Source: Candidatus Omnitrophota bacterium
GTDB taxonomy: Bacteria > Omnitrophota > Gorgyraeia > Duberdicusellales > 4484-171
Direction: 5' to 3'
Assembly: GCA_021735655.1 (NCBI GenBank)
Contig: JAIPGM010000003.1
Coordinates: 1-64,000, forward strand
DNA length: 64,000 bases
Shown here: positions 19,579 through 58,501 of the stretch, one piece after another
Position numbering within the stretch: position 1 is the first letter of the stretch
Layout: each line of letters starts with the position of its first letter
The notes under the pieces: model-generated
Databases searched by the model: none
What the model saw: the letters and a program-made list of their open reading frames with translations, nothing else
What the model was told of the DNA's origin: nothing
Translations under genes and position numbers: made by a program

Positions 19579-19579
19579 T

Positions 19580-20656: not shown

Positions 20657-20659
20657 ATA

Positions 20660-31597: not shown

Positions 31598-31612
31598 AAT
31601 AAAAGCAGGGTA

Positions 31613-33159: not shown

Positions 33160-33848
33160 AAGGATCAAAGCCGATTACTGTGATAGTTGATTATGGAATG
33201 GGCAATCTTTTCAGTCTAGAGAGAGTGATAAGACATCTTGGCGGGACTGCAGTTATATCTTCCGACCCGGAAACTATAGCTTCTGCTGAGCGGGTTATTT
33301 TACCTGGGGTAGGTGCTTTTGGTGATGGTATGGATAAGATAAAAAATCGGGAGTTGGTTGCGCCGATACAAAGAGCTATTGATTCGGGTAAGCCGTTTCT
33401 AGGGATATGTTTAGGCATGCAGCTTCTTATGACCGAGAGTGAAGAGTTTGGTGTTCATGGAGGATTAGATGTTATTTCTGGGTCTGTGCGTAGGTTTTTT
33501 GATTCCAAGGGTGATAAGGCGTCCTATAAGATACCACACGTTGGATGGAACCGCTTGCTTGCTCCTAAGATAGTTGAATTCGGCCAGCCAGTTTCTTGCG
33601 AGGGAAGTAATAAATTTTGGGAGGATACTATTTTAAATACAACTCAAGAGGGTGAATTTGTGTATTTTGTGCATTCGTATACCGTTACCCCTCAGAACCC
33701 TGAGCATATTCTTGCTGAGACTGAATATGGTCAGTCTCGTTTTTGCTCGGCAATACGTTCCAACAATGTGTTTGGCTGCCAGTTTCATCCTGAGGTAAGT
33801 GCGAATGTAGGTTTACGAATCTTAAAAGAGTTTTTATATACTGTTTAA
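33156..33848 (+). CDS. glutamine amidotransferase HisH-like (WbuY-type)
   Basis: VDYGMGNLFS, LPGVGAFG, GICLGMQLL. A class I GATase. Confidence 0.8.
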   Translation: MKGSKPITVIVDYGMGNLFSLERVIRHLGGTAVISSDPETIASAERVILPGVGAFGDGMDKIKNRELVAPIQRAIDSGKPFLGICLGMQLLMTESEEFGVHGGLDVISGSVRRFFDSKGDKASYKIPHVGWNRLLAPKIVEFGQPVSCEGSNKFWEDTILNTTQEGEFVYFVHSYTVTPQNPEHILAETEYGQSRFCSAIRSNNVFGCQFHPEVSANVGLRILKEFLYTV

Positions 33849-33887
33849 GTTTACAAATAGGATTTTTGGCTAGAGAAAGGAGTAATA

Positions 33888-35087
33888 ATGTTATTTCCAG
33901 GAAAAACCTTAGATCGACAGTTGGCAAAAAGCCCCAAAGAGGTTAAATATTGTACAAAGTGCGTGGTTTCAAATCAAAGACCAAGAATTACCTTTGATGA
34001 AAATGGAGTCTGCAGTGCATGTAATTATGCTTATCTTAAGCATAATAAGATTGATTGGGCTAAAAGAGAGAAAATGCTGTTGGAGTTGCTTGATAAGCAT
34101 AGGTCCAGTGATGGAAGTTATGATTGCGTTGTTCCTGGTTCCGGCGGAAAGGATAGTAGTTATGTTGCGCATCAATTGAAATATAAATATCAGATGCACC
34201 CACTTACTGTAACTTGGGCACCTTTTATTTACACAGACGTTGGCTGGCAGAATTATATCGCCTTTAAAGATCATGGGTTTAATAATCTTTTGTGTTTTCC
34301 TGACGGAATAATCCATCGTAAATTAGCTCGTCTTAGTTTTGAATTGTTAGGTGATGCCTGGGAGCCTTTTGCTTATGGGCAAAAGGCATATGCTTTCCAT
34401 ATTGCTACTAAGTTCAAGATTCCTTTAATTTTTTATGGCGAAAGCGGTGAAGTAGAATATGGGGGCTCAACTACTTATATAGATAGTCCGGTAGAGCCAA
34501 CCGATAACTATAGCGAAGTTTATTATAAGGGCTCCGGGGTTGATGAAATTATAAAACATGGTCAAGATGTGGGACTGTTTAGCGAAGAAGAAGTAAAGAG
34601 TAATCCTTTTCAATTTTATCGGATGCCTCCACTTGAGGATGTAGAGAAACTTAAACCACAGATGCACTGGTTTTCTTTTTATAAAAAATGGGTGCCACAG
34701 GAGAATTATTACTACTCTGTTGATCATACTGGTTTTCAAGCAAATTTCGATGGGCGCTCAGAAGGTACCTATTCCAAATATGCTAGCTTAGATGATAAAA
34801 CTGACGGATTCCATTTTTATTTGGCATATATCAAGTTTGGTATTGCCCGAGCTACATCAGATGCTGCGCATGAAATCAGAGACGGGCATCTAACCAGAGA
34901 AGAAGGGGTAGCCTTGGTTCATCGTTACGATGGTGAACTTCCTAAAAAATATTTTAAGGAATTTCTTGAGTATTTAGATATTAAAGAAGAGCAATTCTGG
35001 GAAGTTATTGATTTTTATCGTTCACTTTCTCCCCATCTTTGGGAAAAAATAAATGGTGAATGGAAACTCAAACATAAAGTATTTTGA
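33888..35087 (+). CDS. N-acetyl sugar amidotransferase (PP-loop; WbuX/PseA/LfnA family)
   Basis: CxxC N-terminal Zn-ribbon-like motif (CTKC...CSAC). PP-loop VVPGSGGKDSSYVA. Confidence 0.75.
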   Translation: MLFPGKTLDRQLAKSPKEVKYCTKCVVSNQRPRITFDENGVCSACNYAYLKHNKIDWAKREKMLLELLDKHRSSDGSYDCVVPGSGGKDSSYVAHQLKYKYQMHPLTVTWAPFIYTDVGWQNYIAFKDHGFNNLLCFPDGIIHRKLARLSFELLGDAWEPFAYGQKAYAFHIATKFKIPLIFYGESGEVEYGGSTTYIDSPVEPTDNYSEVYYKGSGVDEIIKHGQDVGLFSEEEVKSNPFQFYRMPPLEDVEKLKPQMHWFSFYKKWVPQENYYYSVDHTGFQANFDGRSEGTYSKYASLDDKTDGFHFYLAYIKFGIARATSDAAHEIRDGHLTREEGVALVHRYDGELPKKYFKEFLEYLDIKEEQFWEVIDFYRSLSPHLWEKINGEWKLKHKVF

Positions 35088-35115
35088 AGGTTGAGGATAG
35101 TAAGAAGGATTTAAA

Positions 35116-36195
35116 ATGAAAGACATAAAAAAAATATTTGTAACTAGTAACAATACGATTGAAGAAACTTTAGCTGTTATCCAGCGTGGAGGTGTGGGCA
35201 TAGCTTTGGTTGTAGATAACCAGCAGCATCTAGTTGGCACAATAACTGATGGAGATATCCGTAGGGCTATTTTGAACAAAATCCCTTTAAGTAAAAAAAT
35301 CACTGTCTTGTTTGATTATCGTCCTGAAGACTACCCAGTCCCGGTTTCAATGCCTCATGACATAACTCGTGAAGAGCTCATTGAGATTATGAGTGAGAAA
35401 AAACTAAATCAAATACCGCTCCTCGATAGCGATTCCCACATCGTAGAACTAGCTTTACTTTCGGAGCTTGTCGAAGAAGAGCTTAACTTGCCGGTTAGAG
35501 CAGTAGTTATGGCTGGCGGAAAGGGGCAGCGGTTGCACCCGCTTACTAAAGATACACCAAAACCGATGCTTCTTTTAGAAGATCGTCCCTTGGTGGAACG
35601 TACCATAGCCCAGCTGCGTAGATCAGGAATTACAAAAGTAAATATTTCTACTCATTACAAATCTGATGTGATTATAAAACATTTTGGTAAAGGAGATGCT
35701 TTTGGTGTAGATATTGATTATATTAATGAAGATCAACCATTGGGTACTGCTGGAGCTTTGGGATTAATGAAACCCATTGATGAACCGACTTTAGTTATCA
35801 ATGGAGATGTGTTAACTAAATTAGATTTTCGTAGGTTGCTTGATTTCCATCGCCATCATGATGCGATAATGACTGTAGGGGTGCGCAAGTGCGAGATAGA
35901 GATACCTTACGGAGTTATTGATATTGATGATGTAGTCGTAAAAAAGATTATTGAAAAACCAGTAAAGAATTTTATTGTTAATGCCGGAATTTATTTGTTA
36001 GGACCAATAGCCTATAAGTATATTCCCAAAAATATAAATTTTGATATGACCGATTTAGTTGATGAGTTACTAAAAGCTAAGCATAAAGTAGTCTGCTTTC
36101 CGATACAGGAGTATTGGCTTGACATAGGACATCCTGAAAATTATGAACAAGCAAAGGAGGACATTAAGAATGGCGCACTTCAGCTGGAAAAATAA
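35116..36195 (+). CDS. CBS-domain-containing sugar-1-phosphate nucleotidyltransferase
   Basis: N-terminal CBS pair (GIALVVDNQQHLVGTITDGDIRR), then AVVMAGGKGQRL. Confidence 0.7.
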   Translation: MKDIKKIFVTSNNTIEETLAVIQRGGVGIALVVDNQQHLVGTITDGDIRRAILNKIPLSKKITVLFDYRPEDYPVPVSMPHDITREELIEIMSEKKLNQIPLLDSDSHIVELALLSELVEEELNLPVRAVVMAGGKGQRLHPLTKDTPKPMLLLEDRPLVERTIAQLRRSGITKVNISTHYKSDVIIKHFGKGDAFGVDIDYINEDQPLGTAGALGLMKPIDEPTLVINGDVLTKLDFRRLLDFHRHHDAIMTVGVRKCEIEIPYGVIDIDDVVVKKIIEKPVKNFIVNAGIYLLGPIAYKYIPKNINFDMTDLVDELLKAKHKVVCFPIQEYWLDIGHPENYEQAKEDIKNGALQLEK

Positions 36196-37171
36196 AAAAG
36201 TTTTTGTTACCGGTGCCGGAGGATTTATCGGAAGTCACTTGTGTGAATGTTTAGTTAAGCTAGGCGCAAAGGTAAAGGCAATGGCAGAGTATAACTCCTT
36301 GGGAAGATGGGGTTGGCTTGATTATTCTAGTTTACATGATGAAATGGATATTTTTTTAGGCGATATCAGAGATAGAGACAGCACCAGAGAAGCTGTTAAG
36401 GGCCAGGATATGGTTTTTCACCTAGCGGCTCTTATAGGTATACCTTATTCTTATATAGCTCCAGCTTCATATATTGAAACTAATATAGCTGGCACTCTTA
36501 ATTTATTGCAAGCAGCAAGAGAGTATGATATCGAATGTTTTTTACAGACCTCAACTAGTGAGACTTATGGAACCGCTCAATATACCCCTATTGATGAAAA
36601 GCATCAACTTCAGGGTCAATCTCCTTATTCAGCTTCGAAAATAGGTGCAGACAAAATGGCAGAGAGTTTTTATCGTTCTTTCAAAGTTCCGGTAGTAACG
36701 GTTAGGCCTTTTAATACCTATGGCCCCAGACAGTCTGCCCGGGCAGTTATACCTACAATTATTACACAAATTTTAGAAAAAGATAAAGTCTGCATTGGTT
36801 CGCTTGCTCCCAGGCGTGATTTGACCTATGTCCAGGATATTGCCTTAGCCTTCATTGGTGCAGCCCAGGCAGGCAAATCTGCCTTTGGTGAAGTGTTTAA
36901 TGTTGGCTCGGGAAAGTCAATATCTATAGGTGAATTAGCCCAAGTGATTGCTAAGCTTATTGGAAAAGAGGTACCCGTAGAAAGCAGTTGCCAGCGTATA
37001 AGGCCAGAGGCTAGTGAAGTAATGTTGTTGATGGCAGATAGTAGTAAAGCTAAAAAAATATTTGGGTGGGAACCAAGCCTTTCTCTAGAAGAAGGACTCA
37101 AGAAAACAATTGAATGGTTTAAGGATAAGGATAATTTAAAGTTATATAAAAATGACCGTTATGTAGTATAA
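36170..37171 (+). CDS. NAD-dependent nucleotide-sugar 4,6-dehydratase (LegB-like extended SDR)
   Basis: VFVTGAGGFIGSH, YSASK. Start chosen at ATG 36170 (AAGGAGG RBS at 36154-36160). The ORF-track ATG at 36143 would overlap the upstream gene further. Confidence 0.6.
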   Translation: MAHFSWKNKKVFVTGAGGFIGSHLCECLVKLGAKVKAMAEYNSLGRWGWLDYSSLHDEMDIFLGDIRDRDSTREAVKGQDMVFHLAALIGIPYSYIAPASYIETNIAGTLNLLQAAREYDIECFLQTSTSETYGTAQYTPIDEKHQLQGQSPYSASKIGADKMAESFYRSFKVPVVTVRPFNTYGPRQSARAVIPTIITQILEKDKVCIGSLAPRRDLTYVQDIALAFIGAAQAGKSAFGEVFNVGSGKSISIGELAQVIAKLIGKEVPVESSCQRIRPEASEVMLLMADSSKAKKIFGWEPSLSLEEGLKKTIEWFKDKDNLKLYKNDRYVV

Positions 37172-37181
37172 GGTTAAAACA

Positions 37182-38381
37182 ATGAGCTCTATGAATAAAA
37201 AAATTACTGTCAGTACATCAATTAATGACTTAATTCCTTTAAGCGTTCCTGAAATTAAGGGTAATGAATGGAAATATATAAAGGAGTGCCTAGATACCAA
37301 TTGGGTTTCATCAGTAGGAAGTTATGTTGATCAATTTGAAAATGCTGTAGCTGATTATGTTGGGCGCGGTTATGGTGTAGCTTGTGTTAATGGTACATCA
37401 GCCTTGCATGTAGCTCTTTTACTTTCGGGTATAAAATCTCAAGAGGAAGTTTTACTTCCGGCGCTTACCTTTGTCGCACCGGCCAATGCTATTTGCTATA
37501 CTGGGGCAAAGCCAGTTTTTATTGACGTTGATCTTGATAATTGGCAAATAGATACAGGAAAGATTTTAGGGTTTTTGAAAAAAGAGTGTAAATATCAAAA
37601 AGGAAAGTTAATTAATAAGAATACCGGTAGAGTAATTAAAGCAATAATGCCTGTGCATATACTAGGACACCCGGCTGATATGGACGCTATCATGAGCATT
37701 GCCCGAAAATATAAACTAAAAGTTATTGAAGATGCTGCTGAAGGATTAGGGTCAGCCTATAAAAATCGACCTCTGGGAATTTCAGGAGATATTGCTTGTT
37801 TTAGCTTTAATGGAAACAAGATATTAACTACTGGCGGCGGAGGTATGGTTGTTGTTGATAAAAAATCCTGGTCTGATCGGGCCCGTTATCTTATAACTCA
37901 AGCCCGGAATAATGTCTTAGAGAATATTCACAATGAAATTGGCTACAATTACCGCCTGACCAATATTCAAGCTGCTATGGGTTTTGCCCAGATGGAGCAA
38001 CTCGATAAATTTGTTGAGAAAAAGAGAGATATTGCTCGTCGATATAATGAGCAATTAAAAGATGTACCGGGAATCGGCTTACCAAAAGAAGCTTCCTGGG
38101 CTAAATCCAATTACTGGCTATATACAATCTTTGTTGACAGAGCTAAATATAGAATTGATAGCAGAGCTTTATTAGAAAAACTAAAAAGATCTAATATCCA
38201 GACTCGGCCTCTGTGGCACCCTTTACATTCCCTAAAGCCGTTTAAAAAGTGTTTTTCTTACAAGATAAAAGTAGCCAATAAATTGTATAAAAATTGTTTG
38301 AGCTTGCCTTCATCAGTAGGGCTTACCAAGAGCGATCAAAAGAAAGTCATCGACATTATAAAACGCAGTAGGAGCTTGTAA
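37182..38381 (+). CDS. DegT/DnrJ/EryC1 family PLP-dependent sugar aminotransferase (LegC-like)
   Basis: NGTSALHVAL and FSFNGNKILTTGGGG, with Lys present. Confidence 0.8.
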   Translation: MSSMNKKITVSTSINDLIPLSVPEIKGNEWKYIKECLDTNWVSSVGSYVDQFENAVADYVGRGYGVACVNGTSALHVALLLSGIKSQEEVLLPALTFVAPANAICYTGAKPVFIDVDLDNWQIDTGKILGFLKKECKYQKGKLINKNTGRVIKAIMPVHILGHPADMDAIMSIARKYKLKVIEDAAEGLGSAYKNRPLGISGDIACFSFNGNKILTTGGGGMVVVDKKSWSDRARYLITQARNNVLENIHNEIGYNYRLTNIQAAMGFAQMEQLDKFVEKKRDIARRYNEQLKDVPGIGLPKEASWAKSNYWLYTIFVDRAKYRIDSRALLEKLKRSNIQTRPLWHPLHSLKPFKKCFSYKIKVANKLYKNCLSLPSSVGLTKSDQKKVIDIIKRSRSL

Positions 38382-38393
38382 AAGGAGTAGTCT

Positions 38394-39434
38394 ATGAGCC
38401 CAGACATGAATATAGTGCGTTCCCAGAAACTTGCCGATAAAATTGTTATTGTAGACGGACAACCCGGTTGCGGTAAAACTATGCTTTCACCGATTGTTGC
38501 TGCTTTGGATAGGGTGGAGTTACTTATGTTTGTTTATGAGATAGAATATTTTTGCGCTTTAAGATATTTACAAAAAATGGATAAAGATACAGCCGAAACT
38601 TTAATTAAATTGATTACTGATTTAAGAATTTATAATGCAATGATGTCGCGGGAAGTAAATTTTCGCTTCAGCGATGCTTCAAGCGCCTTTAAAGATATAA
38701 ATCCCCTGAAATACATTAGGAGGCTTTTTCAAAAGGGTGATGACTTGGTCCCTGAAAGAATAAAGAACCAGAGACCAATTTTGCATTTGGCTACCCATGA
38801 TCTCTTAAGCAGGGCCGATTCAGTTTTTGCTGCTTTAGGTGAAAATCTTGTTTTTATAGAGGTGGTGAGGCATCCTTTATACATGCTTAAACAAGAAGCA
38901 GTTAATATGCAGCGGCTATTCTTATCCGATCCTAAGCATTTTGAAGTATATTTTTCTTATAAGGATAAAGAGTTGCCTTATTTTGTTTATGGGTGGGAGG
39001 ATTTATTTTTTTCTTCTAATCATATTGAAAAAGCTATCTATTTAATCAATAGCATGACTGAGAGAACAGAGGCTTTTAAGAATAATGTAGAGGAAAAGTT
39101 GAACGGAGCTAAGTTGATAACAATTCCTTTTGAAGGTTTTGTGATAAGTCCTGAACCTTATTTGAAAGAAATAGAATTAGCTTTAGACACAAAAGTAACT
39201 AAGGCTACGCGTAAAATGATGAAACGTCAGAATGTGCCACGTAAGATGTATGCTCAAGGTGTTAAACTCGATGTTTACGAAAAGTATGGATGGGAGGCAC
39301 CTAAATCAACAGATGAGTATAGTGAATTAAACCTGCGTCGGAAATTTGCCCAAGATAATGCTTCTGAGGATGCAATGGTTGTGCTTGATAGGCTTTCTAA
39401 AAAGTATGAAGATGAATATTTAAATAAAAAGTAA
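38394..39434 (+). CDS. P-loop protein, sulfotransferase-like (tentative)
   Basis: GQPGCGKT P-loop at residues 22-29. The later VVRHPLY resembles the 3'-PAPS-binding RxP motif of sulfotransferases. Confidence 0.3.
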   Translation: MSPDMNIVRSQKLADKIVIVDGQPGCGKTMLSPIVAALDRVELLMFVYEIEYFCALRYLQKMDKDTAETLIKLITDLRIYNAMMSREVNFRFSDASSAFKDINPLKYIRRLFQKGDDLVPERIKNQRPILHLATHDLLSRADSVFAALGENLVFIEVVRHPLYMLKQEAVNMQRLFLSDPKHFEVYFSYKDKELPYFVYGWEDLFFSSNHIEKAIYLINSMTERTEAFKNNVEEKLNGAKLITIPFEGFVISPEPYLKEIELALDTKVTKATRKMMKRQNVPRKMYAQGVKLDVYEKYGWEAPKSTDEYSELNLRRKFAQDNASEDAMVVLDRLSKKYEDEYLNKK

Positions 39435-39448
39435 AAGAGAGGTTTATT

Positions 39449-40111
39449 GTGAAAACAATTGTATTAGTTCCGGCAAAACTTAAAAGTGACAGAGTTCCTT
39501 TTAAAAATATAAAACAGTTAGGTGGAGTTCCTTTAGTCAATTATACCATGCGTACTTTAAATAAACTTTCAGACATTAATGATATTGTTGTTTTTGCCTC
39601 AGAGCCTTCCATATGCGAGTATATACAGCGCGGATTAAAATATACATTCCTGGAGCGTCCGACAGAGCTGGATACTCAAGATACAAAAATACAGGATATT
39701 ATAAGAGAGTTTTTAAACAGAAGTGATGCCGATATAGTTGTCCTAGTGCATATTACTTCACCATTTTTGCAGGCTGAAACAATCTCTGACTGCATAAAAA
39801 AGGTTCATTCTGGTCAGTATCATACAGCTTTCACTGCATATGAAGTTAGAAAATTCTGTTGGTTTCGCGATAAACCGCTTAACTATTCTTTAGATAAACC
39901 TACACCACGCACTCAGGATATAAACCCGGTAGTTGTAGAGCAGGCTAGTTTATATGTATTTAGGAGAGAGGTTTTTGAAAAAACAGGCCAGCGGATTTGC
40001 TCTAAGCCTTATATTAAATATATTGATCATTTCGAGGGCCATGATATTGATACTCCGGAAGACTTTAGGGTTGCAGAATTGATTGTTAATACAGGTCTCT
40101 TTGCAATATAG
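39449..40111 (+). CDS. cytidylyltransferase (CMP-sugar synthetase / SpsF-like family)
   Basis: GTG start. IVLVPAKLKSDRVPFKN motif. Confidence 0.65.
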   Translation: MKTIVLVPAKLKSDRVPFKNIKQLGGVPLVNYTMRTLNKLSDINDIVVFASEPSICEYIQRGLKYTFLERPTELDTQDTKIQDIIREFLNRSDADIVVLVHITSPFLQAETISDCIKKVHSGQYHTAFTAYEVRKFCWFRDKPLNYSLDKPTPRTQDINPVVVEQASLYVFRREVFEKTGQRICSKPYIKYIDHFEGHDIDTPEDFRVAELIVNTGLFAI

Positions 40112-40122
40112 GATGTAATTAA

Positions 40123-41262
40123 ATGGATCAAGAAACAATTTTTAAGAAAATTTACAATGTCGAACTTAACCAGGATAAGTATGACATTGTAATTGGTAAA
40201 GGTTTACTTGAAACTGCTGTTTTAGAAGCCTTAGAGAAACGGACTAAAAATAAGAATGTTGTTTTTGTCTTTGATGTATTTTTTCAAGATAGAAGCAATG
40301 CTTTTATAGATTTTTTATCTAAGGCTGGCTACAAAGTTTACCCATATTATATGGTAGCTGGCAAGCATAATAAAACTATAAGTGAGGCAATAAAAATATA
40401 CGAAATTCTTGAGGCTAACAGTCTATCTAGAGACTCAACTATAGTAGCTTTAGGAGGTGGTGTTCTTGGCGATTTAGCTGGATTCGTAGCAAGCACATAT
40501 CATCGCGGGATGAAGCTTATAAATATACCGACCACCCTTACGGCCATGATTGACAGTAGCATTGGAGGCAAGGTCGCTATAAATTTCAGAAAGACTATTA
40601 ATGCCATAGGAAATTACTATCATCCTATAGCAAATGTTATTGATTTTAAATTTATTAGTACATTACCTCAACGTGACTTTAAGGCTGGACTGGCTGAGAT
40701 AATAAAATGTGCAATTATTAACGATAAAGAACTGTTTGATTATCTTAAATCTAATAGCCAGAAGATTCTTGACCGGGATGAAGATTCTTTATTCAATATC
40801 ATGTGTCGAGCCATAGAGATTAAACTTGTTCATGTATCAGGGGATGTGAAGGAGAAGAATGAGAGACTCAAGCTCAATTACGGCCACACCTTAGGACATT
40901 CCATAGAGATTTCGACCGATGTCTTAGAGGAGATTTATCGCCATGGAGAGGGGGTGTCTCTTGGCATGGTTGCTGCAGCATTTTTGGCAAGAAAATATTT
41001 TGGACAAGGTCAAGATATCTTAGATGCTCATGAGGAGATTCTTAACCAGTATGGCCTTCCAACCCGAGTTCATGCAAAAGATATTGGTTTTGAATATAAG
41101 AGTTTGATTGAAGAATGTATGCGAAATGTTCATAAAGATAAAAAGAAAAAGGATAACAAACTCAGATTTATTCTTCCTGATGAAATTGGTAAATGCCAGG
41201 TCTACGATCGTGTGGCAGATGATGCTATCAGGGAGGCATTTGTTTATCTTATAAAGGAGTGA
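40123..41262 (+). CDS. 3-dehydroquinate synthase-like sugar phosphate cyclase / Fe-ADH superfamily protein
   Basis: LGGGVLGDLAGFVASTYHRGMKLINIPTTL and HSIE/HG metal-ligand motifs. Confidence 0.65.
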   Translation: MDQETIFKKIYNVELNQDKYDIVIGKGLLETAVLEALEKRTKNKNVVFVFDVFFQDRSNAFIDFLSKAGYKVYPYYMVAGKHNKTISEAIKIYEILEANSLSRDSTIVALGGGVLGDLAGFVASTYHRGMKLINIPTTLTAMIDSSIGGKVAINFRKTINAIGNYYHPIANVIDFKFISTLPQRDFKAGLAEIIKCAIINDKELFDYLKSNSQKILDRDEDSLFNIMCRAIEIKLVHVSGDVKEKNERLKLNYGHTLGHSIEISTDVLEEIYRHGEGVSLGMVAAAFLARKYFGQGQDILDAHEEILNQYGLPTRVHAKDIGFEYKSLIEECMRNVHKDKKKKDNKLRFILPDEIGKCQVYDRVADDAIREAFVYLIKE

Positions 41263-41263
41263 T

Positions 41264-42025
41264 ATGAAAGAAAAAAAATCTTTAGAAAGAAAAACTTGTA
41301 TTATAACTGGATCTGGTAAGGGAATTGGAAGAGCAGCCGCAGAGCTTTTTTATAATCATGGGGCTAACTTGGCATTGATTACCAGAGATAAACAAGACTT
41401 GATATCCTTAAGGGACGATGTCGGATTTGACGATGAACGAATTTTTCTAAGCCAGGGAGACGTCTCTGATGAGGAAACGGTTAAAAGATTCATACAAGAA
41501 ACTATAGGAAAATTTAAAAAAATAGATGTTCTTATTAATAATGCCGGTATACGTTTCAGGAAAGATTTTTTAGACACCACGACAGAGGAGTGGGATCAAG
41601 TAATTAATAATAACCTCAATAGCACATATCTTTTTTCTAGGGAAGCAGGGCGAAATATGGTTTCAAGAAAAGAGGGCAAAATTGTTAATATTGTATCGAT
41701 TGTAGGTACGCTTGGATTGCCTCAGCTTTCCGCATACGGAGCATCAAAAGGAGGAGTAATCACGCTTACGAAATGCTTAGCTTTAGAGTGGGCCAAATGC
41801 AATATTAATGTTAACGCTATTGCCCCAGGATTTTGCGAAACATCGTATGTAGAAAAGTTTAGAAAAAAAGAAGAACTATATAAATTTACTATAGAAAGGA
41901 CGCCGCAGAAAAAATGGGGAACTTCTCTTGACATAGCAGAAGCCTGTCTTTTCTTATCCACAGAAGCATCTAAGTATATTACTGGTGAAGTGTTAAATGT
42001 TGATGGTGGTTGGAGTGCTTGGTAA
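41264..42025 (+). CDS. short-chain dehydrogenase/reductase (FabG-like SDR)
   Basis: ITGSGKGIGRAAA, NNAG, YGASKGGV. Ends DGGWSAW. Confidence 0.8.
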   Translation: MKEKKSLERKTCIITGSGKGIGRAAAELFYNHGANLALITRDKQDLISLRDDVGFDDERIFLSQGDVSDEETVKRFIQETIGKFKKIDVLINNAGIRFRKDFLDTTTEEWDQVINNNLNSTYLFSREAGRNMVSRKEGKIVNIVSIVGTLGLPQLSAYGASKGGVITLTKCLALEWAKCNINVNAIAPGFCETSYVEKFRKKEELYKFTIERTPQKKWGTSLDIAEACLFLSTEASKYITGEVLNVDGGWSAW

Positions 42026-42091
42026 AAATAATAAATTAAGAATAAAAAATGTTTTAAGATAGTAGAAAATTATTGTATTTTGTAATTAATA
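42026..42091 (+). promoter_or_regulatory. AT-rich intergenic spacer; candidate internal promoter
   Basis: One of the few non-coding gaps above 60 nt in the locus. Very AT-rich. No terminator hairpin is visible. Confidence 0.2.
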
Positions 42092-44260
42092 TTGAGACAA
42101 ATATTTAAAATGGGAATGAGGGGTGAGGAGAAAAATAATCAGAGAAGTTATTATATACAAAATCTTACAGTCGCTCCTTGGCTAGTATCGATAGCTCCTT
42201 ATCTAATGCGTAATTTTTTCAAGGGGAATAGAAATATCAAAGTTTATTTTATCGATGCTTCAATATGTGGTTTATGGCTGGCGCGCTTCATGTTATTATT
42301 TTTTGGTCTCAAGCTTAATGAGTTGAAATTTCGTTTGGTTGATGTCCATGATGACGATGGTGTTCTTCTGCATCTACGAGTAGATTATTTTGATTCTACG
42401 GTTGTGCAAAAATATATATTGGAAAGGCCTATTTTCTCGGAGCTGTTTTTAAACAAGCCTGCTAAAAGTAGAATAGCTATGTTTTTGGCAAAACGCATTT
42501 TTGCCTCTGCTAGTAAGCCTGAATCGACATTAGATAGAGCAGTTTATCTCATTCAAGTAGTTAAGCAAAAGTCAAAAGAGTATGTAGCTGAATGCTTGCA
42601 GCCTGTTTTGTTTTTGGACAGAAGGTTGTGGATGAATGAAATTAAAAGATATGCGTGCAAGCATAATATATCTGTTATTGGCGCTAAAAGTTTTAATATC
42701 AATTTTAAATATTTTTTATTAGGGTTTTTGGGACCAAAAATAAATATTTTAAAAAATATCTATTTTTGGTTTTTAAGAATAAAAAGAAGTTTTTGCAGTA
42801 AGTATGGCTGGATTGTTAAAAATAAGAAATCAATTTCAATCGTTATCAGACATAAAAAAAATAATGCAGATAATAGCATTATTGGTAGCCAGGTAAAGCT
42901 TGGGGTTAACTATTATGGTCATCTTAATCTTAATAATCCAGAACTGTATTCGGATTTATTTTTTTTACAGCAGTCAGATTTATCAGGAAAAGATATTTTA
43001 ATCGTATCTAATATGCTGTTTGATCCCATTGATGATAAAAAATTAATGGAGATTGCCAAGCATGATATGAATGTAGTTGCGCTTTCAGCAAAGGCAACTA
43101 ATAGTTTTTCCGTGCCGTTTTTTTACCATTGGCCGAGTCGTAGCTCAAATTCATCGTTTAAGTTTATCTCAAAAAATGCTTATAATGGCGATGAGCGCAG
43201 ATGGTTTCTGCGGCAGATGAGAGACTACTATAAGGATTGTAATTATTGGCAGGATTTTTTTGCAAAGCATAATGTTAAGGCATTTATGACTTGGTATAAG
43301 TATGATGCTTCTCACTGTGTTGTTGCCGATGCCATGCGGAATGTTGGAGGAATAATGGCTGTTTATCAACGCGCCTTTGAGGAATTTCCTTCTTGCAAGA
43401 CAACGATTGCGTCTGATGTTGTGTTTGGTTTTTCGCCTGCAAATGCTGAGATTGAACGTCTTTCCGGTTCACAGATTTCCTACCATATTTCTACAGGTTA
43501 TTATGCTGACTACAGGCTACCTTTGCTAAAGGCGCATGCACAGAGGGTGCGCACATCTCTACAGCAAAGAGGAGCTAAACAAATTATTGCTTATTTTGAT
43601 GAAAATTCCGGAGCTGATTCTCGTTGGCATAATGGGCATGAATCTACAATAGCTAATTATGATTTTTTACTTAAAAAAGTTTTATCTCAAAAATGGTTTG
43701 GTCTTATTTTAAAACCTAAGGTTCCCTCAACGTTAAGATTGAGGCTGGGGCTAACGGCAGACTTACTTAAGGAAGCAGAAGCAACTGGAAGGTGTTTTGT
43801 CTTTGAGGCAGGGGCCTTGCATAGTGCCTACCCTCCCGCTATAGCTGCTCTAGCTTCTGATATCGCCATCCACGGTCATCTGTATGCTGCAACAGCTGGG
43901 CTTGAATCAGCGCTTGCAGGAGTCCCTACTCTTTTACTTGATCGTGAAGGCTGGTCGATTAGTAAATTATACCATTTGGGTTTAGGACGGGTAGTTTTTA
44001 CTGATTGGCAAAGTCTTTGGAAAACATATATTGAATATTGGCAGGATTCCAGGAAGGTGCCAGGCTTCGGCGATTGGTCTTCGATGATAAATGATTTAGA
44101 TCCTTTCAGAGATGGCCGAGCAGCAGAAAGAATAGGTACATACTTGAAGTGGTTGCTTGACGGCTTTAAGCAAGGGCTTAAACGAGAAGATATTATGGCT
44201 TCTGCCGCAGAGCGTTATGCTAGGATTTGGGGAAGTGATAAAATAGCTACACTGGGGTAG
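42092..44260 (+). CDS. large hypothetical protein (722 aa), GT-B-like C-terminal region; candidate glycosyltransferase
   Basis: The C-terminal AIAALASDIAIHGHLYAATAGLESALAGVPTLLLD resembles the GT-B nucleotide-binding half. Confidence 0.3.
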   Translation: MRQIFKMGMRGEEKNNQRSYYIQNLTVAPWLVSIAPYLMRNFFKGNRNIKVYFIDASICGLWLARFMLLFFGLKLNELKFRLVDVHDDDGVLLHLRVDYFDSTVVQKYILERPIFSELFLNKPAKSRIAMFLAKRIFASASKPESTLDRAVYLIQVVKQKSKEYVAECLQPVLFLDRRLWMNEIKRYACKHNISVIGAKSFNINFKYFLLGFLGPKINILKNIYFWFLRIKRSFCSKYGWIVKNKKSISIVIRHKKNNADNSIIGSQVKLGVNYYGHLNLNNPELYSDLFFLQQSDLSGKDILIVSNMLFDPIDDKKLMEIAKHDMNVVALSAKATNSFSVPFFYHWPSRSSNSSFKFISKNAYNGDERRWFLRQMRDYYKDCNYWQDFFAKHNVKAFMTWYKYDASHCVVADAMRNVGGIMAVYQRAFEEFPSCKTTIASDVVFGFSPANAEIERLSGSQISYHISTGYYADYRLPLLKAHAQRVRTSLQQRGAKQIIAYFDENSGADSRWHNGHESTIANYDFLLKKVLSQKWFGLILKPKVPSTLRLRLGLTADLLKEAEATGRCFVFEAGALHSAYPPAIAALASDIAIHGHLYAATAGLESALAGVPTLLLDREGWSISKLYHLGLGRVVFTDWQSLWKTYIEYWQDSRKVPGFGDWSSMINDLDPFRDGRAAERIGTYLKWLLDGFKQGLKREDIMASAAERYARIWGSDKIATLG

Positions 44261-44298
44261 TTATCCAAATGTAACAATAGGTTAGAGAAGATATAACT

Positions 44299-45051
44299 GT
44301 GAATATACAAATTTTTATAAAAAAAGTTAAAAATAAACTGAAAACATTTTGGTTGCAAATAGCTACCTTAAGGAGTGCTAATTTGCGTTGGTTGTTTCGG
44401 AATCGTTATTTGCGTATGGATGCTAATGTAACAACAAATCCGGTTGAGAGAAGGATTTTTCATATTGATCGATATAAATTCGCCGTGAATAAACTTAGAA
44501 AAGTTTATAGCGATACAAGGAATTTACTTATTGTTGATGTTGCTTGTGGTACAGGGTATGGCTCGGATATTTTAAAAAAAGTTAATCCGAAAAAAATAAT
44601 AGGTATTGATATTTGTCCTGAGACAGTTAAATATGCTCAAAAAAAATATGGAACGCATCATTGTATTTTTAATACTAGCGATGCTGTCGAAATGAATATT
44701 ATTAAATCAGGAACTGTCGATGTGGTCGTTTCATTTGAAACCATTGAGCATTTAGAGCAGCCGATAATTTTTTTGAAGAACGTAAAAAGGGTATTGAAGA
44801 ATAAAGGATGCTTAATTATTTCCACACCTAATAGTTGGGGAGAAACAAGAGACCATAGGTTTGATTATGATTATCAATTGCTGAAGACTCACCTTGAACA
44901 ATTCTTCACGATAGACTCTATGTATGTTCAAAATAGCGGAAGTATGAATTTATGGATGAATAGAGGTTTTCAGCGGCGGTTAATTCCAGTGAGTCCCGAT
45001 AACGTTAATGAGGCCGAATGTTTTATAGCCATAGCCAGAAATTATTTTTAA
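44299..45051 (+). CDS. class I SAM-dependent methyltransferase
   Basis: GTG start. LIVDVACGTGYGS motif I and DVVVSFETIEHL. Confidence 0.65.
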   Translation: MNIQIFIKKVKNKLKTFWLQIATLRSANLRWLFRNRYLRMDANVTTNPVERRIFHIDRYKFAVNKLRKVYSDTRNLLIVDVACGTGYGSDILKKVNPKKIIGIDICPETVKYAQKKYGTHHCIFNTSDAVEMNIIKSGTVDVVVSFETIEHLEQPIIFLKNVKRVLKNKGCLIISTPNSWGETRDHRFDYDYQLLKTHLEQFFTIDSMYVQNSGSMNLWMNRGFQRRLIPVSPDNVNEAECFIAIARNYF

Positions 45052-45082
45052 TAGTGTTGTTTTGTGCAGAGCGAATAAATTT

Positions 45083-46018
45083 ATGAGAAATAAAATTAAT
45101 TTTTTAAAGGGATATGTCAAAAGGTATGTAGTTGCTGCATATAAACGACAGAAGTTACAGGCAGGTGAGTTTCCCCCCCAGCTATGGATAGAGAATACCA
45201 ATCATTGTAATGCAGCGTGTGTCATGTGTCCTCGTGATAAGCATAATCGGTCGCTTGGTTTTATGGAGTTTTCCCTTTTTGAACGTCTGATTAAGGAAAT
45301 AGCTGTACATAAAAATAATGTTTCAGCTGTTCATATGCATAATTATGGCGAACCGCTTATGGATAAAGAATTAATCAAAAAAGTAAAACTAGCTAAGGAT
45401 TATGGGATAAAACATGTTTATTTTGTTACCAACGCAGCATTGTTGACTAGTGATTTATCAGAAAAGCTAATAGCCTCAGGGCTTGATCAATTTAAAATAA
45501 GTTTTTATGGAACCGATAGACAAACATATAACGCTACAATGAGAGGGCTTGATTTTGATCAAACAATGTCTAATGTTAAGCAATTTTTCCAAATACGAAA
45601 GAAGATGAAGTCCCTTCAACCTAAAGTTATAATTCAATACCTTCCTCAGTCTCACAACAAGGCAGAAATTAGCAAATTTAAAAGTATTTTTGATTCCATG
45701 ATTGATTCTAAATTAGGCGATAGGTTGAATATTTATTCTTTGTTGAATTTCGGGGAAGGGAGAAGTTATAATAACTTTGCCAGAAGAATAGTTAGTTCAA
45801 TATGCAATTATCCGTGGAGGACTATGGTGGTATTGCATGATGGCCGGGTTACGGCTTGCTGTATGGATTATAATGGGGTTTTATCTATGGGAAATGTTAC
45901 TCAGAGCACTATAAAGCAAATATGGAATAACCAAACTTATAAAAAAATCAGAGAGGATTTTAAAAAGCTTGATTACAAAGAATACCAGGTTTGTAGAAAT
46001 TGTGATCTTATTTTTTAG
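45083..46018 (+). CDS. radical SAM protein
   Basis: HCNAACVMCP CxxxCxxC motif. Starts at ATG 45083 or at the upstream in-frame TTG 45062. Contains a C7 tract at 45173-45179. Confidence 0.6.
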   Translation: MRNKINFLKGYVKRYVVAAYKRQKLQAGEFPPQLWIENTNHCNAACVMCPRDKHNRSLGFMEFSLFERLIKEIAVHKNNVSAVHMHNYGEPLMDKELIKKVKLAKDYGIKHVYFVTNAALLTSDLSEKLIASGLDQFKISFYGTDRQTYNATMRGLDFDQTMSNVKQFFQIRKKMKSLQPKVIIQYLPQSHNKAEISKFKSIFDSMIDSKLGDRLNIYSLLNFGEGRSYNNFARRIVSSICNYPWRTMVVLHDGRVTACCMDYNGVLSMGNVTQSTIKQIWNNQTYKKIREDFKKLDYKEYQVCRNCDLIF

Positions 46019-46028
46019 GTAAATTTTT

Positions 46029-47828
46029 ATGAGAATAATTTGTTTTTTAAATCCAAAATTAATTAGCAGTCACAAAATTCCCGTTTTTAATAAAAATCGT
46101 TATATTATTTCCTATGATGAGTTTAAACCGCGGGAAGCTATTACTAGAGATAGCAACCTTAAACAAATTATAATTTTTCCAATAACAAATCAAGAGCGGG
46201 CCACTTGCGAAAGAGAGTATATCGCTAATGTTTCAAAATTATCCGAGATTTTTGATTCATTGGAGTGGTGGGCGAATCCAATTTCTGAGAAAAATGAACA
46301 TTCTTCTATACAGTATAAAGATTTGTGTTTATTTTTTTCTTTAATAAAAACTATAGATAAACATAGGGATGAACGATGCGACATTTTGGTTTATGGGGAC
46401 GGTAGTATTTATAATATTCTGAGAAAGCATTATTCGAACAAGGGGATACAGGTAGTATTCATAGGTAGCAAACTCTTTAGAAACATCCAAAGTTTTATAT
46501 ACCAGATACTAAAAATCGTATTATTATTTTTTAAAATTATTTCACGCAAGTTATTTTTGAGGAAAATAGCCAGTAAACTAAGGAAACAATTAAGTAACAA
46601 AAGCTGTTATTATGTAATAAGGACATGGCTTTATAATCAACCAGATGCTAATTTCAGAAATGATGCTTTTTTTGGAAGATTGCCTGAATACGCAGCGAAT
46701 CGAGGCAATAAAGTATTACTGCTAGGTGGAATTATTGATAATTATCGAAAGATTTTGCAAAAAATATTAAAGTCTGATGGTAAAACTATTGTTATTCCGG
46801 AAGAGTATTTTTTAAAATATTCAGATATTTTTAAGTTATTCGTTTATTTTAAATTTAAAATCAGGAAGCTTGATAGCAAAATTATTTTTAAGGGAATTGA
46901 TGTAACAGATTACTATTCTCAAGAGATTTTTAAAGGATTTTGGCAAGACTCATATATTTATAATATTATTCGTTATATGATTGCAAAGCGTTTTGGCGAA
47001 ACTGTTAATTTTAATGTTTTCCTGCAGACTTTTGAAAATTATGCTTGGGAAAAAGTGACCATTAAAGGGATTAAGGCGGCAAGGAGCAATTGTAGGGTAT
47101 TAGGATTTCAGCATGCCTTCGTGTCAAGGAATTCATTTAAGTATTTTCCTGGACAACAGGAATTAGACAGGATTCCTTTACCAGATAAAATTATTACTAT
47201 GGGTGAGAGGACAAAAGAGATTTTGCAAAATTACGGAGCTTATCGCAAAGAACAAATCGTAGTTGGTTGTGCTTTACGCCAACAGTATCTCGATGATTTG
47301 TCTTTTATAGAGAGGCGGCGTTGCAATAAAATACTAGTACCATTGACAATGGTTACTCAGGAGTCAATCAGAATTATTAAGTTTCTTTGCGACTCTAATA
47401 TTTCTAAGACAAATAAAAATATTGTTATTAGGCCTCATCCAGCACGGGATTTTAAATCAGTAAAAGAAAAGATTCCATTTGAAATACCCAGTAATTTTAT
47501 AATTAATAATTGTAAGACGATGAAGGAAGAGTTATCTGATGCAGGTATGGTTTTGTATACTTGGTCAACGATTTCTGCCGAAGCATTAAGATTGGGGTTG
47601 CCGGTAATTTATCTGGATATATTAAGGCCACTTTATGTTGATCCTTTATTTGAATGTGATGCTCTTAAAAGAAAGGTTAGTGAGGCTGATGAGCTTGTGC
47701 CGGCAGTTGACAGCCTTTATGGGATAAGTAATGATGATTTTGAAATTGAACGGAAGATGGCCAGTGAGTATAGTAAAAGTTATTTTTATCCAGTAACAGA
47801 AAGTAATTTAGCACATTTTTTTTCGTAA
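46029..47828 (+). CDS. large hypothetical protein (599 aa), GT-B-like; candidate glycosyltransferase/polymerase
   Basis: C-terminal IVIRPHPARD...DAGMVLYTWSTISAEALRLGLPVIYLD resembles a GT-B donor-binding domain. Confidence 0.3.
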   Translation: MRIICFLNPKLISSHKIPVFNKNRYIISYDEFKPREAITRDSNLKQIIIFPITNQERATCEREYIANVSKLSEIFDSLEWWANPISEKNEHSSIQYKDLCLFFSLIKTIDKHRDERCDILVYGDGSIYNILRKHYSNKGIQVVFIGSKLFRNIQSFIYQILKIVLLFFKIISRKLFLRKIASKLRKQLSNKSCYYVIRTWLYNQPDANFRNDAFFGRLPEYAANRGNKVLLLGGIIDNYRKILQKILKSDGKTIVIPEEYFLKYSDIFKLFVYFKFKIRKLDSKIIFKGIDVTDYYSQEIFKGFWQDSYIYNIIRYMIAKRFGETVNFNVFLQTFENYAWEKVTIKGIKAARSNCRVLGFQHAFVSRNSFKYFPGQQELDRIPLPDKIITMGERTKEILQNYGAYRKEQIVVGCALRQQYLDDLSFIERRRCNKILVPLTMVTQESIRIIKFLCDSNISKTNKNIVIRPHPARDFKSVKEKIPFEIPSNFIINNCKTMKEELSDAGMVLYTWSTISAEALRLGLPVIYLDILRPLYVDPLFECDALKRKVSEADELVPAVDSLYGISNDDFEIERKMASEYSKSYFYPVTESNLAHFFS

Positions 47829-47852
47829 GTATAAAAAGGAAATTAAGGTTAG

Positions 47853-48737
47853 ATGAAAATACTAATTACAGGGGCAGCGGGCATGCTTGCTGAGGAAGTG
47901 GTATCTAATTTATTAAAGCATGGGCACAAGGTTGTTCAAGCAGACATAAACCAACGTCTTCCAGATATATTAAAAATTAATATTCAAGATCGTGATGGTG
48001 TCATGAGGTTGGTAGAAAAAGAGAGCCCGGATTATATTTTCCATCTTGCTGCTGAGACTGATGTCGATTTATGTGAAGAAGATCCCGATCATGCTTTTAG
48101 AGTGAATAGCCAGGGAACCGAGAATATTGCTCTAGTTTGTTTGGAGCATAAGATACCTTGTCTATATATTAGCACAGGGGCAGTTTTTTCTGGAGTTAAG
48201 CAAGAGCCTTACACAGAGTTCGATACACCTTTACCAGTAAGTGTTTACGGTAGGAGTAAGCTAAAGGGCGAAGAGATAGTTAAAAATACTTTAAATAAAT
48301 ATTTTATAATTCGTGCTGGATGGATGGTTGGTGGTTGGGAACTTGACAAAAAGTTTGTTTATAAGATAGTTCAACAGCTAAAAAAAGGCCAAAAGCAATT
48401 ACGTGTAGTTGCTGATAAATTTGGTTCACCTACCTTTACAAAAGATTTTGCAAATAATCTTATGAGTGTTATTAATAGTAAGCGCTATGGATTGTATCAT
48501 ATGGCAAATACAGGTACATGTTCACGTTATGATATGGCAGTAAAGATAGTTGAATATATGGGGTTGAATGGTCAAGTAACAATTGAGCCTGTTAGCTCTG
48601 AACAATTTCCTTTATCTGCCCCCCGTGCTCGTTCAGAAATGATGCAAAATCACAAGTTGCAATTGTTAGGACTCAACAATATGCCACGTTGGGAAGATTC
48701 TCTCAAAAACTACATTAAAGAGAATAAATGCAGATAA
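47853..48737 (+). CDS. rfbD: dTDP-4-dehydrorhamnose reductase
   Basis: ILITGAAGMLA, YGRSKLKGE. Sized and ordered like RmlD. Confidence 0.8.
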   Translation: MKILITGAAGMLAEEVVSNLLKHGHKVVQADINQRLPDILKINIQDRDGVMRLVEKESPDYIFHLAAETDVDLCEEDPDHAFRVNSQGTENIALVCLEHKIPCLYISTGAVFSGVKQEPYTEFDTPLPVSVYGRSKLKGEEIVKNTLNKYFIIRAGWMVGGWELDKKFVYKIVQQLKKGQKQLRVVADKFGSPTFTKDFANNLMSVINSKRYGLYHMANTGTCSRYDMAVKIVEYMGLNGQVTIEPVSSEQFPLSAPRARSEMMQNHKLQLLGLNNMPRWEDSLKNYIKENKCR

Positions 48738-55990: not shown

Positions 55991-56776
55991 ATGAAAGCAG
56001 TAATATTATGTGGAGGAAGAGGGACAAGAATTAGAGATGCCTCAGAAGTTTTACCTAAGTCAATGCTTCCGGTGGGCAATATGCCCTTGCTTTGGCATAT
56101 AATGAAAATTTACGCTCATTATGGGATAAAAGATTTCGTTTTATGCCTTGGTTATAAAGGGTGGGCGATAAAAGAGTTTTTTTTAAATTATCAAGCTAAG
56201 GTTTTTGATGTAGTGTTGAAGTTAGATAAAGAAAATTCAATAATTTATGGCCAAAACCATCATGAAAAGTTAGATTGGAAAATCTCGCTTGTAGAAACAG
56301 GCGAAGAATCACAAACCGGAGCAAGAATTTGGAATGCACGCAAATATTTAGAAGATTGTGATATGTTTTGTGTAACTTATGGTGACGGTGTTGGCAATAT
56401 CGACATCAAATCTTTAATAGAAGTTCATAAAAAATCGGGTTTACTTGGCACAATAACTGGAGTTCATCCTTCAGGCCGTTTTGGCGAAATAGAGACAAAA
56501 GGTAAGATTATTTCTTCTTTCGCAGAGAAGCCAAATGTAAGCTTTGGTTCTTATAATGGCGGGTTTATGGTTTTTGATAGAAAAGTTTTAGGAAAATATT
56601 TTAGATCTGGAAAAGATTTGATATTGGAGGCAGAAACTTTGCCTAATATGGTGAATGACAAGCAGTTAGGAATATATGAGCATAATGGTTTTTGGCAATG
56701 TGTTGACACTAATCGGGAATTAGAAATATTGGAGGGTTTATGGAATTCTTCTAATCCTCCTTGGAAAGTATGGTGA
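55991..56776 (+). CDS. rfbF: glucose-1-phosphate cytidylyltransferase
   Basis: MKAVILCGGRGTRI...LWHIMKIYAHYGIKDF...LWNSSNPPWKVW, near-colinear with RfbF/DdhA. Confidence 0.9.
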   Translation: MKAVILCGGRGTRIRDASEVLPKSMLPVGNMPLLWHIMKIYAHYGIKDFVLCLGYKGWAIKEFFLNYQAKVFDVVLKLDKENSIIYGQNHHEKLDWKISLVETGEESQTGARIWNARKYLEDCDMFCVTYGDGVGNIDIKSLIEVHKKSGLLGTITGVHPSGRFGEIETKGKIISSFAEKPNVSFGSYNGGFMVFDRKVLGKYFRSGKDLILEAETLPNMVNDKQLGIYEHNGFWQCVDTNRELEILEGLWNSSNPPWKVW

Positions 56777-58490: not shown

Positions 58491-58501
58491 AGCTTTAAAT
58501 A

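Follow-up and report, generated by a model that had tools for sequence, protein, structure and literature searches.

The four genes described in this work lie side by side in a 64,000-nt window, the whole stretch of DNA that was analysed, on contig JAIPGM010000003.1 of a Candidatus Omnitrophota bacterium, a metagenome-assembled genome (MAG). They encode a large protein (A), a class I S-adenosylmethionine (SAM)-dependent methyltransferase (MT), a radical SAM protein (rSAM), and a second large protein (D). All four open reading frames (ORFs) are on the plus strand where an earlier sequence-only reading had placed them, and their coordinates are shown in Table 1. The AT-rich gap that this reading had described before A was found as well. 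The other spacers within the block are 38, 10, and 10 nt long. No terminator-like site was predicted across positions 41500-48500 and the sequence scan found no promoter-like site on the plus strand inside the gap, which suggests that the block is probably co-transcribed with the upstream and neighbouring genes. The assignment to an Omnitrophota MAG rests on exact matches to GenBank entries K9L86_02890 and K9L86_02905. A Leptospira origin, to which the GC content and LIC-named NCBIfam matches had pointed, was rejected. Both A and D are real genes because their full-length homologues form 76 and 81 clusters, respectively, at 90% identity.

The block follows directly on a cytidine monophosphate (CMP)-nonulosonate pathway, as had been claimed from the sequence. 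The upstream genes of the main pathway are arranged in the order GFO, CTP_transf_3 cytidylyltransferase, short-chain dehydrogenase/reductase (SDR), NeuB, NeuC, NeuD, WbuZ, HisH, WbuX, CBS-nucleotidyltransferase (PtmE-like), LegB, and LegC. The scores are 466 bits for NeuB, 483 for NeuC, 342 for WbuX, and 443 for LegB (TIGR04180), and LegC reaches 489 bits with TIGR04181, which exceeds the cut-off of 420. By these profile matches, the pathway is of the legionaminic-acid type with acetamidino formation. The window contains 57 ORFs of at least 150 aa, all of them on the plus strand, and the cumulative GC skew rises monotonically. Nearly all of the window ORFs that were checked are sugar-nucleotide or glycan-assembly genes. 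We consider it moderately probable that the block is the transfer and tailoring end of the nonulosonic-acid (NulO) section of a single-strand surface-glycan locus of about 64 kb.

Table 1. Features of the four-gene block and of the donor-supply genes upstream of it, given as positions in the window.
Feature	Position	Strand	Size or composition	Supporting match
AT-rich intergenic gap 5' of gene A	42026-42091		66 nt, 10.6% GC	
Protein A, GT-B fold, unclassified family; candidate CMP-legionaminate-type glycosyltransferase	42092-44260	+	714-722 aa	
MT, class I SAM-dependent methyltransferase, putative tailoring enzyme	44299-45051	+	250 aa	PF08241 1e-18
rSAM, radical SAM with C-terminal SPASM/twitch, putative tailoring enzyme	45062-46018	+	318 aa	
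Protein D, GT-B fold, invariant His470-Pro471; candidate CMP-nonulosonate glycosyltransferase	46029-47828	+	599 aa	
Legionaminic-acid-type pathway, likely donor supply of A	26889-38381	+		NCBIfam and Pfam matches
Cassette 5' of A, which probably supplies or modifies one donor sugar	39449-42025	+		
CMP-sugar synthetase (CTP_transf_3)	39449-40111	+		NCBIfam PseF-like 8e-21; PDB CMP-NeuAc synthetases ~1e-11
3-dehydroquinate synthase (DHQS)-like NAD enzyme	40123-41262	+		NCBIfam aroB model, 318 bits
SDR	41264-42025	+		NCBIfam

The structures of A and D were predicted with AlphaFold2 from alignments of about 40 homologues each. Both models are confident, with a predicted local distance difference test (pLDDT) score of 86.9 and a predicted template modelling (pTM) score of 0.88 for A, and 89.6 and 0.90 for D. 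Their architecture is also similar: about 200 N-terminal alpha/beta residues lead into a long helix, which is followed by two Rossmann-like domains and then by helices at the C-terminus. This is the GT-B fold, which the sequence-only reading had suggested for both proteins. The absence of any Rossmann-like GT-B fold, which it had named beforehand as refuting, was not observed. The C-terminal strings that it had quoted as the nucleotide-sugar half (LYAATAGLESALAGVPTLLLD in A and YTWSTISAEALRLGLPVIYLD in D) are present and lie on a helix-strand element of the second Rossmann domain. The model of D was compared with known GT-B structures, and the scores are 15.8 for WbnH, 15.5 for NeuC, 15.3 for WlaC, 14.3 for TarL, 12.1 for WaaA, and 11.7 for polysialyltransferase. 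Both proteins are strongly basic, with a net charge of approximately +26 to +31, and a single amphipathic helix of moderate hydrophobicity is present in each. These properties suggest that A and D would be associated peripherally with the membrane.

D has no match in Pfam or among PDB sequences. D itself exhibits weak NCBIfam matches to TIGR04326 (33.4 bits over residues 331-542), TIGR04396, and PseG, and no match to NF046086, which is named 'BFO_1060 family glycosyltransferase'. The 42 relatives of D that were searched give a clearer picture. TIGR04326 is matched by 40 of them (best 1.6e-22, all well below the cut-off), TIGR04396 by 25, and NF046086 by 10 at an E-value of 0.01 or lower (best 5.7e-11). 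Pfam yields weak DUF6716, GT4, and GT1 matches in a few relatives. When 53 D-like sequences were aligned so as to span a deliberately wide range (14-51% identity), His470-Pro471 were the sole invariant columns, and both residues are also invariant in a second alignment of D. Residues D212, E336, E341, Q361-H362, P385, G392, G523, and D538-P539 are conserved in at least 90% of the same sequences. D thus carries, in its C-terminal domain, the His-Pro (HP) motif of bacterial sialyltransferase-like CMP-sugar transferases. The TIGR04326 profile (LIC13510 family) has 602 positions, which is similar to the length of D. TIGR04326 and TIGR04396 carry only the generic name 'surface carbohydrate biosynthesis' protein and are functionally uncharacterised, and our literature search on TIGR04326 and LIC13510 found no paper. 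On these profile matches, D is a remote member (sister family) of a modelled superfamily that is biochemically unexplored.

The only tested members of this superfamily are nonulosonate transferases. In Tannerella forsythia, the S-layer O-glycan loses its terminal pseudaminic acid (Pse) or legionaminic acid (Leg) derivative when Tanf_01245 or TFUB4_00887 is deleted and regains it upon complementation (PMC5420450). BFO_1060 is the counterpart of both genes in strain 92A2, and the HP motif is common to the Tannerella transferases and bacterial sialyltransferases (PMC5420450). Like D, the Tannerella enzymes are GT-B/TagB-like, carry the HP motif, and are encoded directly 3' of a CMP-Pse or CMP-Leg pathway; in one Tannerella strain, a single methyltransferase gene lies between the pathway and the transferase gene (PMC5420450). 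At 599 aa, D is longer than the Tannerella enzymes (about 445 aa) and has an additional region at its N-terminus. The matches of the D relatives to NF046086 and TIGR04326 and the invariant His-Pro lend support to the proposal, made from the sequence, that D is a NulO transferase.

The GenBank record (K9L86_02890) annotates A as a protein of 684 aa that begins at M39, which is 38 codons (42092-42205) downstream of the TTG at 42092. Twelve homologues share a conserved N-terminus (FIE.LT..W....LPYL), with which the residues 5' of M39, including YYIQNLTVAPWLVSIAPYL, align. The true start of A would thus be 42092 (TTG), 42110, or 42116 (both ATG). As judged from this conservation, the ORF chosen in the sequence-only reading is closer to the true start than the GenBank record.

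Searches of Pfam, NCBIfam, and PDB sequences with A gave no match. The 41 family members that were compared with NCBIfam and Pfam also gave no meaningful match, and 2 of them reach NF046086 at E = 0.02. The A-family profile search covered 1.84 billion representatives and identified 2093 clusters at E <= 1e-3 and 1020 clusters at E <= 1e-30, counted as clusters of 50% identity. Almost all of the top 150 matches cover the full length. When each GTDB species was represented by a single genome, the family was found in 104 species. All 79 species-level A loci that were fetched are from MAGs, and the taxa comprise Omnitrophota, Planctomycetota, Acidobacteriota, Nitrospirota, Elusimicrobiota, Delta- and Betaproteobacteria, SAR324, Chloroflexota, Bacteroidia, and others. 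The position equivalent to the HP motif is occupied in A by invariant K503-P504-K505 (KPK), so the His-Pro of sialyltransferase-like enzymes is lacking in A. A is an unmodelled family of known fold in which the nucleotide-site motif is altered.

No similarity was found between A and D with BLASTP, and the first hhalign comparison gave a probability of 0.7%. With enlarged alignments (113 A-type and 86 D-type sequences), hhalign aligned 233 collinear columns (P = 6e-4). The motif pairs in A and D are AVYQRAFE and GFQHAF, IIAYFDENS and ILVPLTMVT, LILKPK and VIRPHP, and ATAGLESALAGVPTLLLD and WSTISAEALRLGLPVIYLD. We read A and D as probable distant paralogues on the basis of these alignments. PDB searches with the single sequences and with three profiles of A and D returned nothing significant, and no relatives of either protein were found among PLSDB plasmids. 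The sequence-only reading had compared both proteins with the Maf family and had listed DUF115/Maf and KpsC/S among the families to check. The Maf/DUF115 (MptE-like) identity was rejected since A, D, and their relatives have no PF01973 match and the predicted fold is GT-B. The KpsC/KpsS (GT107, Capsule_synth) identity was also rejected because no match was found, the nearest being KpsC at E = 1.1. The same reading had called both proteins the best candidates for genuinely novel families in the window. This description holds for A, for which Pfam and NCBIfam have no model, and fails for D, which belongs remotely to a modelled uncharacterised superfamily.

The neighbourhoods of A were compared by translating all ORFs of the 79 A loci, with flanks of 10 kb, and searching them with every window protein. 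A LegC orthologue (at least 300 bits) is present within 10 kb of A in 45 of the 79 loci. Among the 69 loci whose sequence extends far enough upstream, 28 have LegC immediately 5' of A. Within the same distance, PtmE-like genes are found in 47 loci, LegB in 50, WbuX in 28, and NeuB and NeuC in about 26 each (NeuC in at least 24). The last of these counts are minimum values, since the pathway extends beyond the flank. The genes recur in the order NeuB, NeuC, (NeuD), WbuZ, HisH, WbuX, PtmE, LegB, LegC, A, and a D-like gene. This embedding in legionaminic-acid operons favours the suggestion that A is a NulO transferase. In 46 of the 79 loci, A is followed on its own strand by a D-like ORF (500-650 aa), which often overlaps A by a few bases or starts at most 20 bp away. 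In the other 33 loci, no D-like gene was detected within 10 kb of A. D-like genes without A abut CTP_transf_3 genes in loci L007, L008, and L089.

MT and rSAM were identified between A and D as the sequence-only reading had described them. MT matches related Pfam models besides PF08241 and reaches no NCBIfam equivalog. rSAM matches PF04055 (6e-14) and PF13186 (1.5e-17), and its C-x3-C-x2-C motif is CNAACVMC. The best NCBIfam matches of rSAM are far below the cut-offs, 348 homologues were found, and the GenBank start gives a protein of 311 aa. When only contigs of 5 kb or longer are considered, at least 28 of the 50 D clusters have one of the 120 best rSAM homologues on the same contig, and the corresponding number for A and D is 5. 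The MT gene accompanies the rSAM-D pair in L001/L002, L007, L088, and L089. The CTP_transf_3, DHQS-like, and SDR genes are also found 5' of MT, rSAM-SPASM, and D in these loci. The order inspected in L007 and L089 is CTP_transf_3, DHQS-like, SDR, (B12-radical SAM), MT, rSAM-SPASM, D, (rSAM-SPASM), and L088 is a variant of it with an A homologue. Apart from the window, both MT and rSAM are located between A and D only in L001/L002/L012, which are from one genome with the order of MT and rSAM reversed, while rSAM alone lies between A and D in L017. The view of two glycosyltransferases flanking MT and rSAM as one unit was therefore rejected. The conserved units are LegC with A and a D-like gene and, separately, D with rSAM/SPASM.

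We infer the transferase function and the donors of A and D from the predicted fold and the gene context, in which adjacency to CTP_transf_3, NeuB, and Leg genes makes CMP-NulO the candidate donor. We lean towards A and D being two dedicated CMP-NulO transferases, with MT and rSAM tailoring the donor sugar of D, and hold this with a confidence somewhat above even. A would transfer the legionaminic-acid-type sugar that is made by the genes just upstream, and D would transfer a second CMP-NulO. This second sugar would be made or remodelled by the cassette of cytidylyltransferase, DHQS-like protein, and SDR and then tailored by MT and rSAM/SPASM. The arrangement of the cassette recalls ElaABC, and together with the linkage of MT and rSAM to D it points to a tailored CMP-nonulosonate with D as its transferase. 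ElaABC of Acinetobacter baumannii KL49 produces CMP-Leg5,7Ac2, which it also epimerises at C8 (PMC13656337). It combines a cytidylyltransferase with two NAD(P)-dependent oxidoreductases, and a cassette of this type is found in the window at 26889-29397 (GFO, CTP_transf_3, and SDR). The cassette immediately 5' of A is an ElaABC look-alike in layout, but the DHQS-like protein, which matches the aroB model, takes the position of the oxidase instead of an ElaA-type protein.

The proposed reaction would proceed as follows. CMP-NulO would be bound in the C-terminal Rossmann domain of A and D, where the second strand would end in the HP motif (D) or the KPK motif (A), next to the helix-strand element from the sequence-only reading. 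Holding the acceptor at the membrane would fall to the N-terminal Rossmann domain and the extension. A residue of the cleft would act as the base, which may be E336, E341, or H362 in D and H370, D404, or D435 in A. The sugar would then be transferred to the growing, probably lipid-linked glycan, and CMP would leave. The ORFs, predicted folds, family relationships, conserved motifs, and neighbourhood counts are results of the analysis, and from them we infer the donor identity, the acceptor, the catalytic residues, the pairing of enzymes with donors, and the chemistry of MT and rSAM.

Several observations weigh against the assignment of A and D as CMP-NulO transferases. The sequence of A itself is absent from the NCBIfam matches, and the match of D to TIGR04326 is weak when compared with the cut-off of 250 bits. 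The homology between A and D is statistically weak, with an hhalign probability of 28% even with the enlarged alignments. H362 of D is replaced by R389 in A and H470 of the HP motif by K505, and both replacements fall in invariant motifs of the A family, so that A may use a different donor or chemistry. The matches to GT-B folds are silent on donor specificity. Both families are known solely from sequence, predicted structure, and gene context, and every A-family locus that was fetched is from an uncultured organism.

Three other explanations were compared with the assignment of A and D as CMP-NulO transferases. The replaced histidines, the position after LegC, and the epimerase-like structural matches are also compatible with A being a non-transferase GT-B enzyme of the legionaminic-acid pathway, such as a nucleotide-sugar hydrolase/2-epimerase or another enzyme acting on a guanosine diphosphate (GDP)- or CMP-linked intermediate, with transfer performed by D-like proteins only. 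We regard this as unlikely. The hydrolase/2-epimerase step is already covered by a NeuC/LegG orthologue in the window and in at least 24 loci within 10 kb of A, and A has no sequence similarity to the epimerase or PseG families. The additional region of A (about 230 aa) and its basic amphipathic helix are typical of membrane-associated transferases, and 33 of the 79 loci contain A with no D-like gene detected within 10 kb. The same 33 loci, along with the D-like genes that occur without A, count against an obligatory pair in which A would start and the downstream D-like protein would extend a di-, oligo-, or polynonulosonate. Such a pair would be analogous to KpsS and KpsC, which are a pair of related Kdo transferases (PMC12887879), and the reading of A and D as distant paralogues fits this parallel. 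The order of A before a D-like gene on the same strand in the 46 loci also fits, as many of these genes are -3 to +20 bp apart and such overlapping or near-abutting genes suggest translational coupling. However, two or three separate CMP-sugar synthetases are present in the window and in several loci, which agrees with one transferase per donor, and the Wzy-like, GT2, and GT4 genes of the locus are typical of a heteropolymer. We consider an obligatory pair quite unlikely.

A TagF/TarL-like phosphotransferase would be the third possibility for A and perhaps D, in which a cytidine diphosphate (CDP)-activated alditol phosphate or sugar phosphate is used to build a teichoic-acid-like or phosphodiester polymer. 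Such a role agrees with the best structural matches, yet we judge it improbable. The Pfam model Glyphos_transf has no match at E <= 1 in A, D, or 83 relatives, and A and D have no PDB sequence match to TagF or TarL. These wall teichoic acid polymerases have no detectable sequence similarity to A or D, and KPK takes the place of the His-Pro motif in A. Among the annotated genes, the locus context is CMP-nonulosonate and not CDP-alditol, and the strongest neighbours of A are legionaminic-acid genes. The cytidylyltransferases beside A and D, here and in the related loci, are CTP_transf_3 proteins of the CMP-sialate/Kdo synthetase types instead of TagD or TarI, and all those found in the profile-annotated part of the window, which covers the ORFs other than those at 55991-59386, are CTP_transf_3.

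The remaining genes of the window and of the related loci are described here. The window contains three NeuB-family genes (17191, 20660, and 29391) and three CTP_transf_3 cytidylyltransferase genes (20660, 27884, and 39449), yet A and D are the only candidates of their type and no further A- or D-type gene was found in it. The ORF at 17191-19578 on the plus strand encodes a fusion of 795 aa with an FAD/NAD-binding amine-oxidase-like domain N-terminal to NeuB and SAF. Because this ORF and ORF 19463-20656 share 116 nt, the TTG taken as the start of the latter is probably incorrect. In the 587-aa product of the plus-strand ORF at 20660-22423, NeuB is fused to a CTP_transf_3 cytidylyltransferase. 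A protein of 346 aa without a Pfam or NCBIfam match is encoded at 38394-39434 (plus strand), between LegC and the second cytidylyltransferase of the region, and its homologues are found near A in 15 of the 79 loci, mostly close to a CTP_transf_3 gene. The genes 3' of D encode RmlD, GT2, a Wzy-like protein, a methyltransferase, GT4, and a WecG/TagA-type transferase. B12-binding radical SAM enzymes are encoded in the upstream sugar modules at 7391-8887 and 10655-12100 (plus strand). In the related loci, a B12-radical SAM gene is directly 5' of A (L001/L002) or near D (L089).

The RmlB (deoxythymidine diphosphate (dTDP)-glucose 4,6-dehydratase) gene at 1730-3697 on the plus strand has an in-frame insertion of about 330 aa. 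The insertion is intein-like with a LAGLIDADG homing endonuclease and contains the internal motifs LAAYITEGNA and KLLEGDGT. Its boundaries are HLAAE/SIPEDVY at the start and GNVVCHN/THVDNS at the end, and excision would yield AAETHVDNS. This sequence resembles the conserved RmlB motif AAESHVDRS.

A conserved run of genes follows the D-like gene in several loci. In L003, which has no D-like gene after A, a run at 17860-20671 comprises SIS, transaldolase/FSA, HpcH/HpaI aldolase, and HAD phosphatase genes, with GFO just 5' of it. Similar runs are found after the D-like gene in L010, L024, L059, L075, and L086, and CTP_transf_3 then follows in L010. A second CTP_transf_3 gene is located 3' of A in L010 and L025. 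The recurrent runs beside A and D-like genes may represent a second, undescribed ulosonic-acid pathway. A third paralogue group of about 640 aa without a Pfam match was observed in L007 (1-1447), L088 (1585-3516), and L089 (870-2810). This group matches the hidden Markov model of the D-like proteins at an E-value of about 1e-11 and is located immediately 5' of the cassette of CTP_transf_3, DHQS-like, and SDR genes.

Among the closest known systems are the bacterial sialyl- and ulosonic-acid transferases of GT38, GT52, GT80, GT99, GT107, GT118, and GT140. Knowledge of Leg and Pse transferases has been termed 'scarce' (PMC5420450), and single enzymes continue to give rise to new CAZy families, such as GT118 in 2024 and GT140 in 2026 (PMC12887879). 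A is a worthwhile experimental target since few nonulosonate transferases are known and families are still defined in this way. Our literature searches found no report on radical SAM enzymes with nonulosonic acids or on Omnitrophota with nonulosonic acids. A more far-reaching proposal, which we put forward tentatively and regard as rather doubtful, has two parts. The cassette of CMP-sugar synthetase, DHQS-like protein, SDR, MT, rSAM/SPASM, and D would make and install an undescribed NulO derivative, for example by radical remodelling at the level of the CMP-sugar. A would found a legionaminic-acid glycosyltransferase family in which the histidine of the HP motif is replaced by lysine and which acts in tandem with D-like partners in more than 10 mostly uncultured phyla.

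Family A, with more than 1000 clusters at 50% identity, no model in Pfam or NCBIfam, a close link to legionaminic-acid operons, and a presence in many uncultured phyla, is a testable candidate for a missing transferase class. The pairing of D with rSAM/SPASM points to a type of NulO tailoring of which our literature search found no account. Such enzymes would be useful for the chemoenzymatic synthesis of NulO glycans and for predicting surface-glycan potential from metagenome data.

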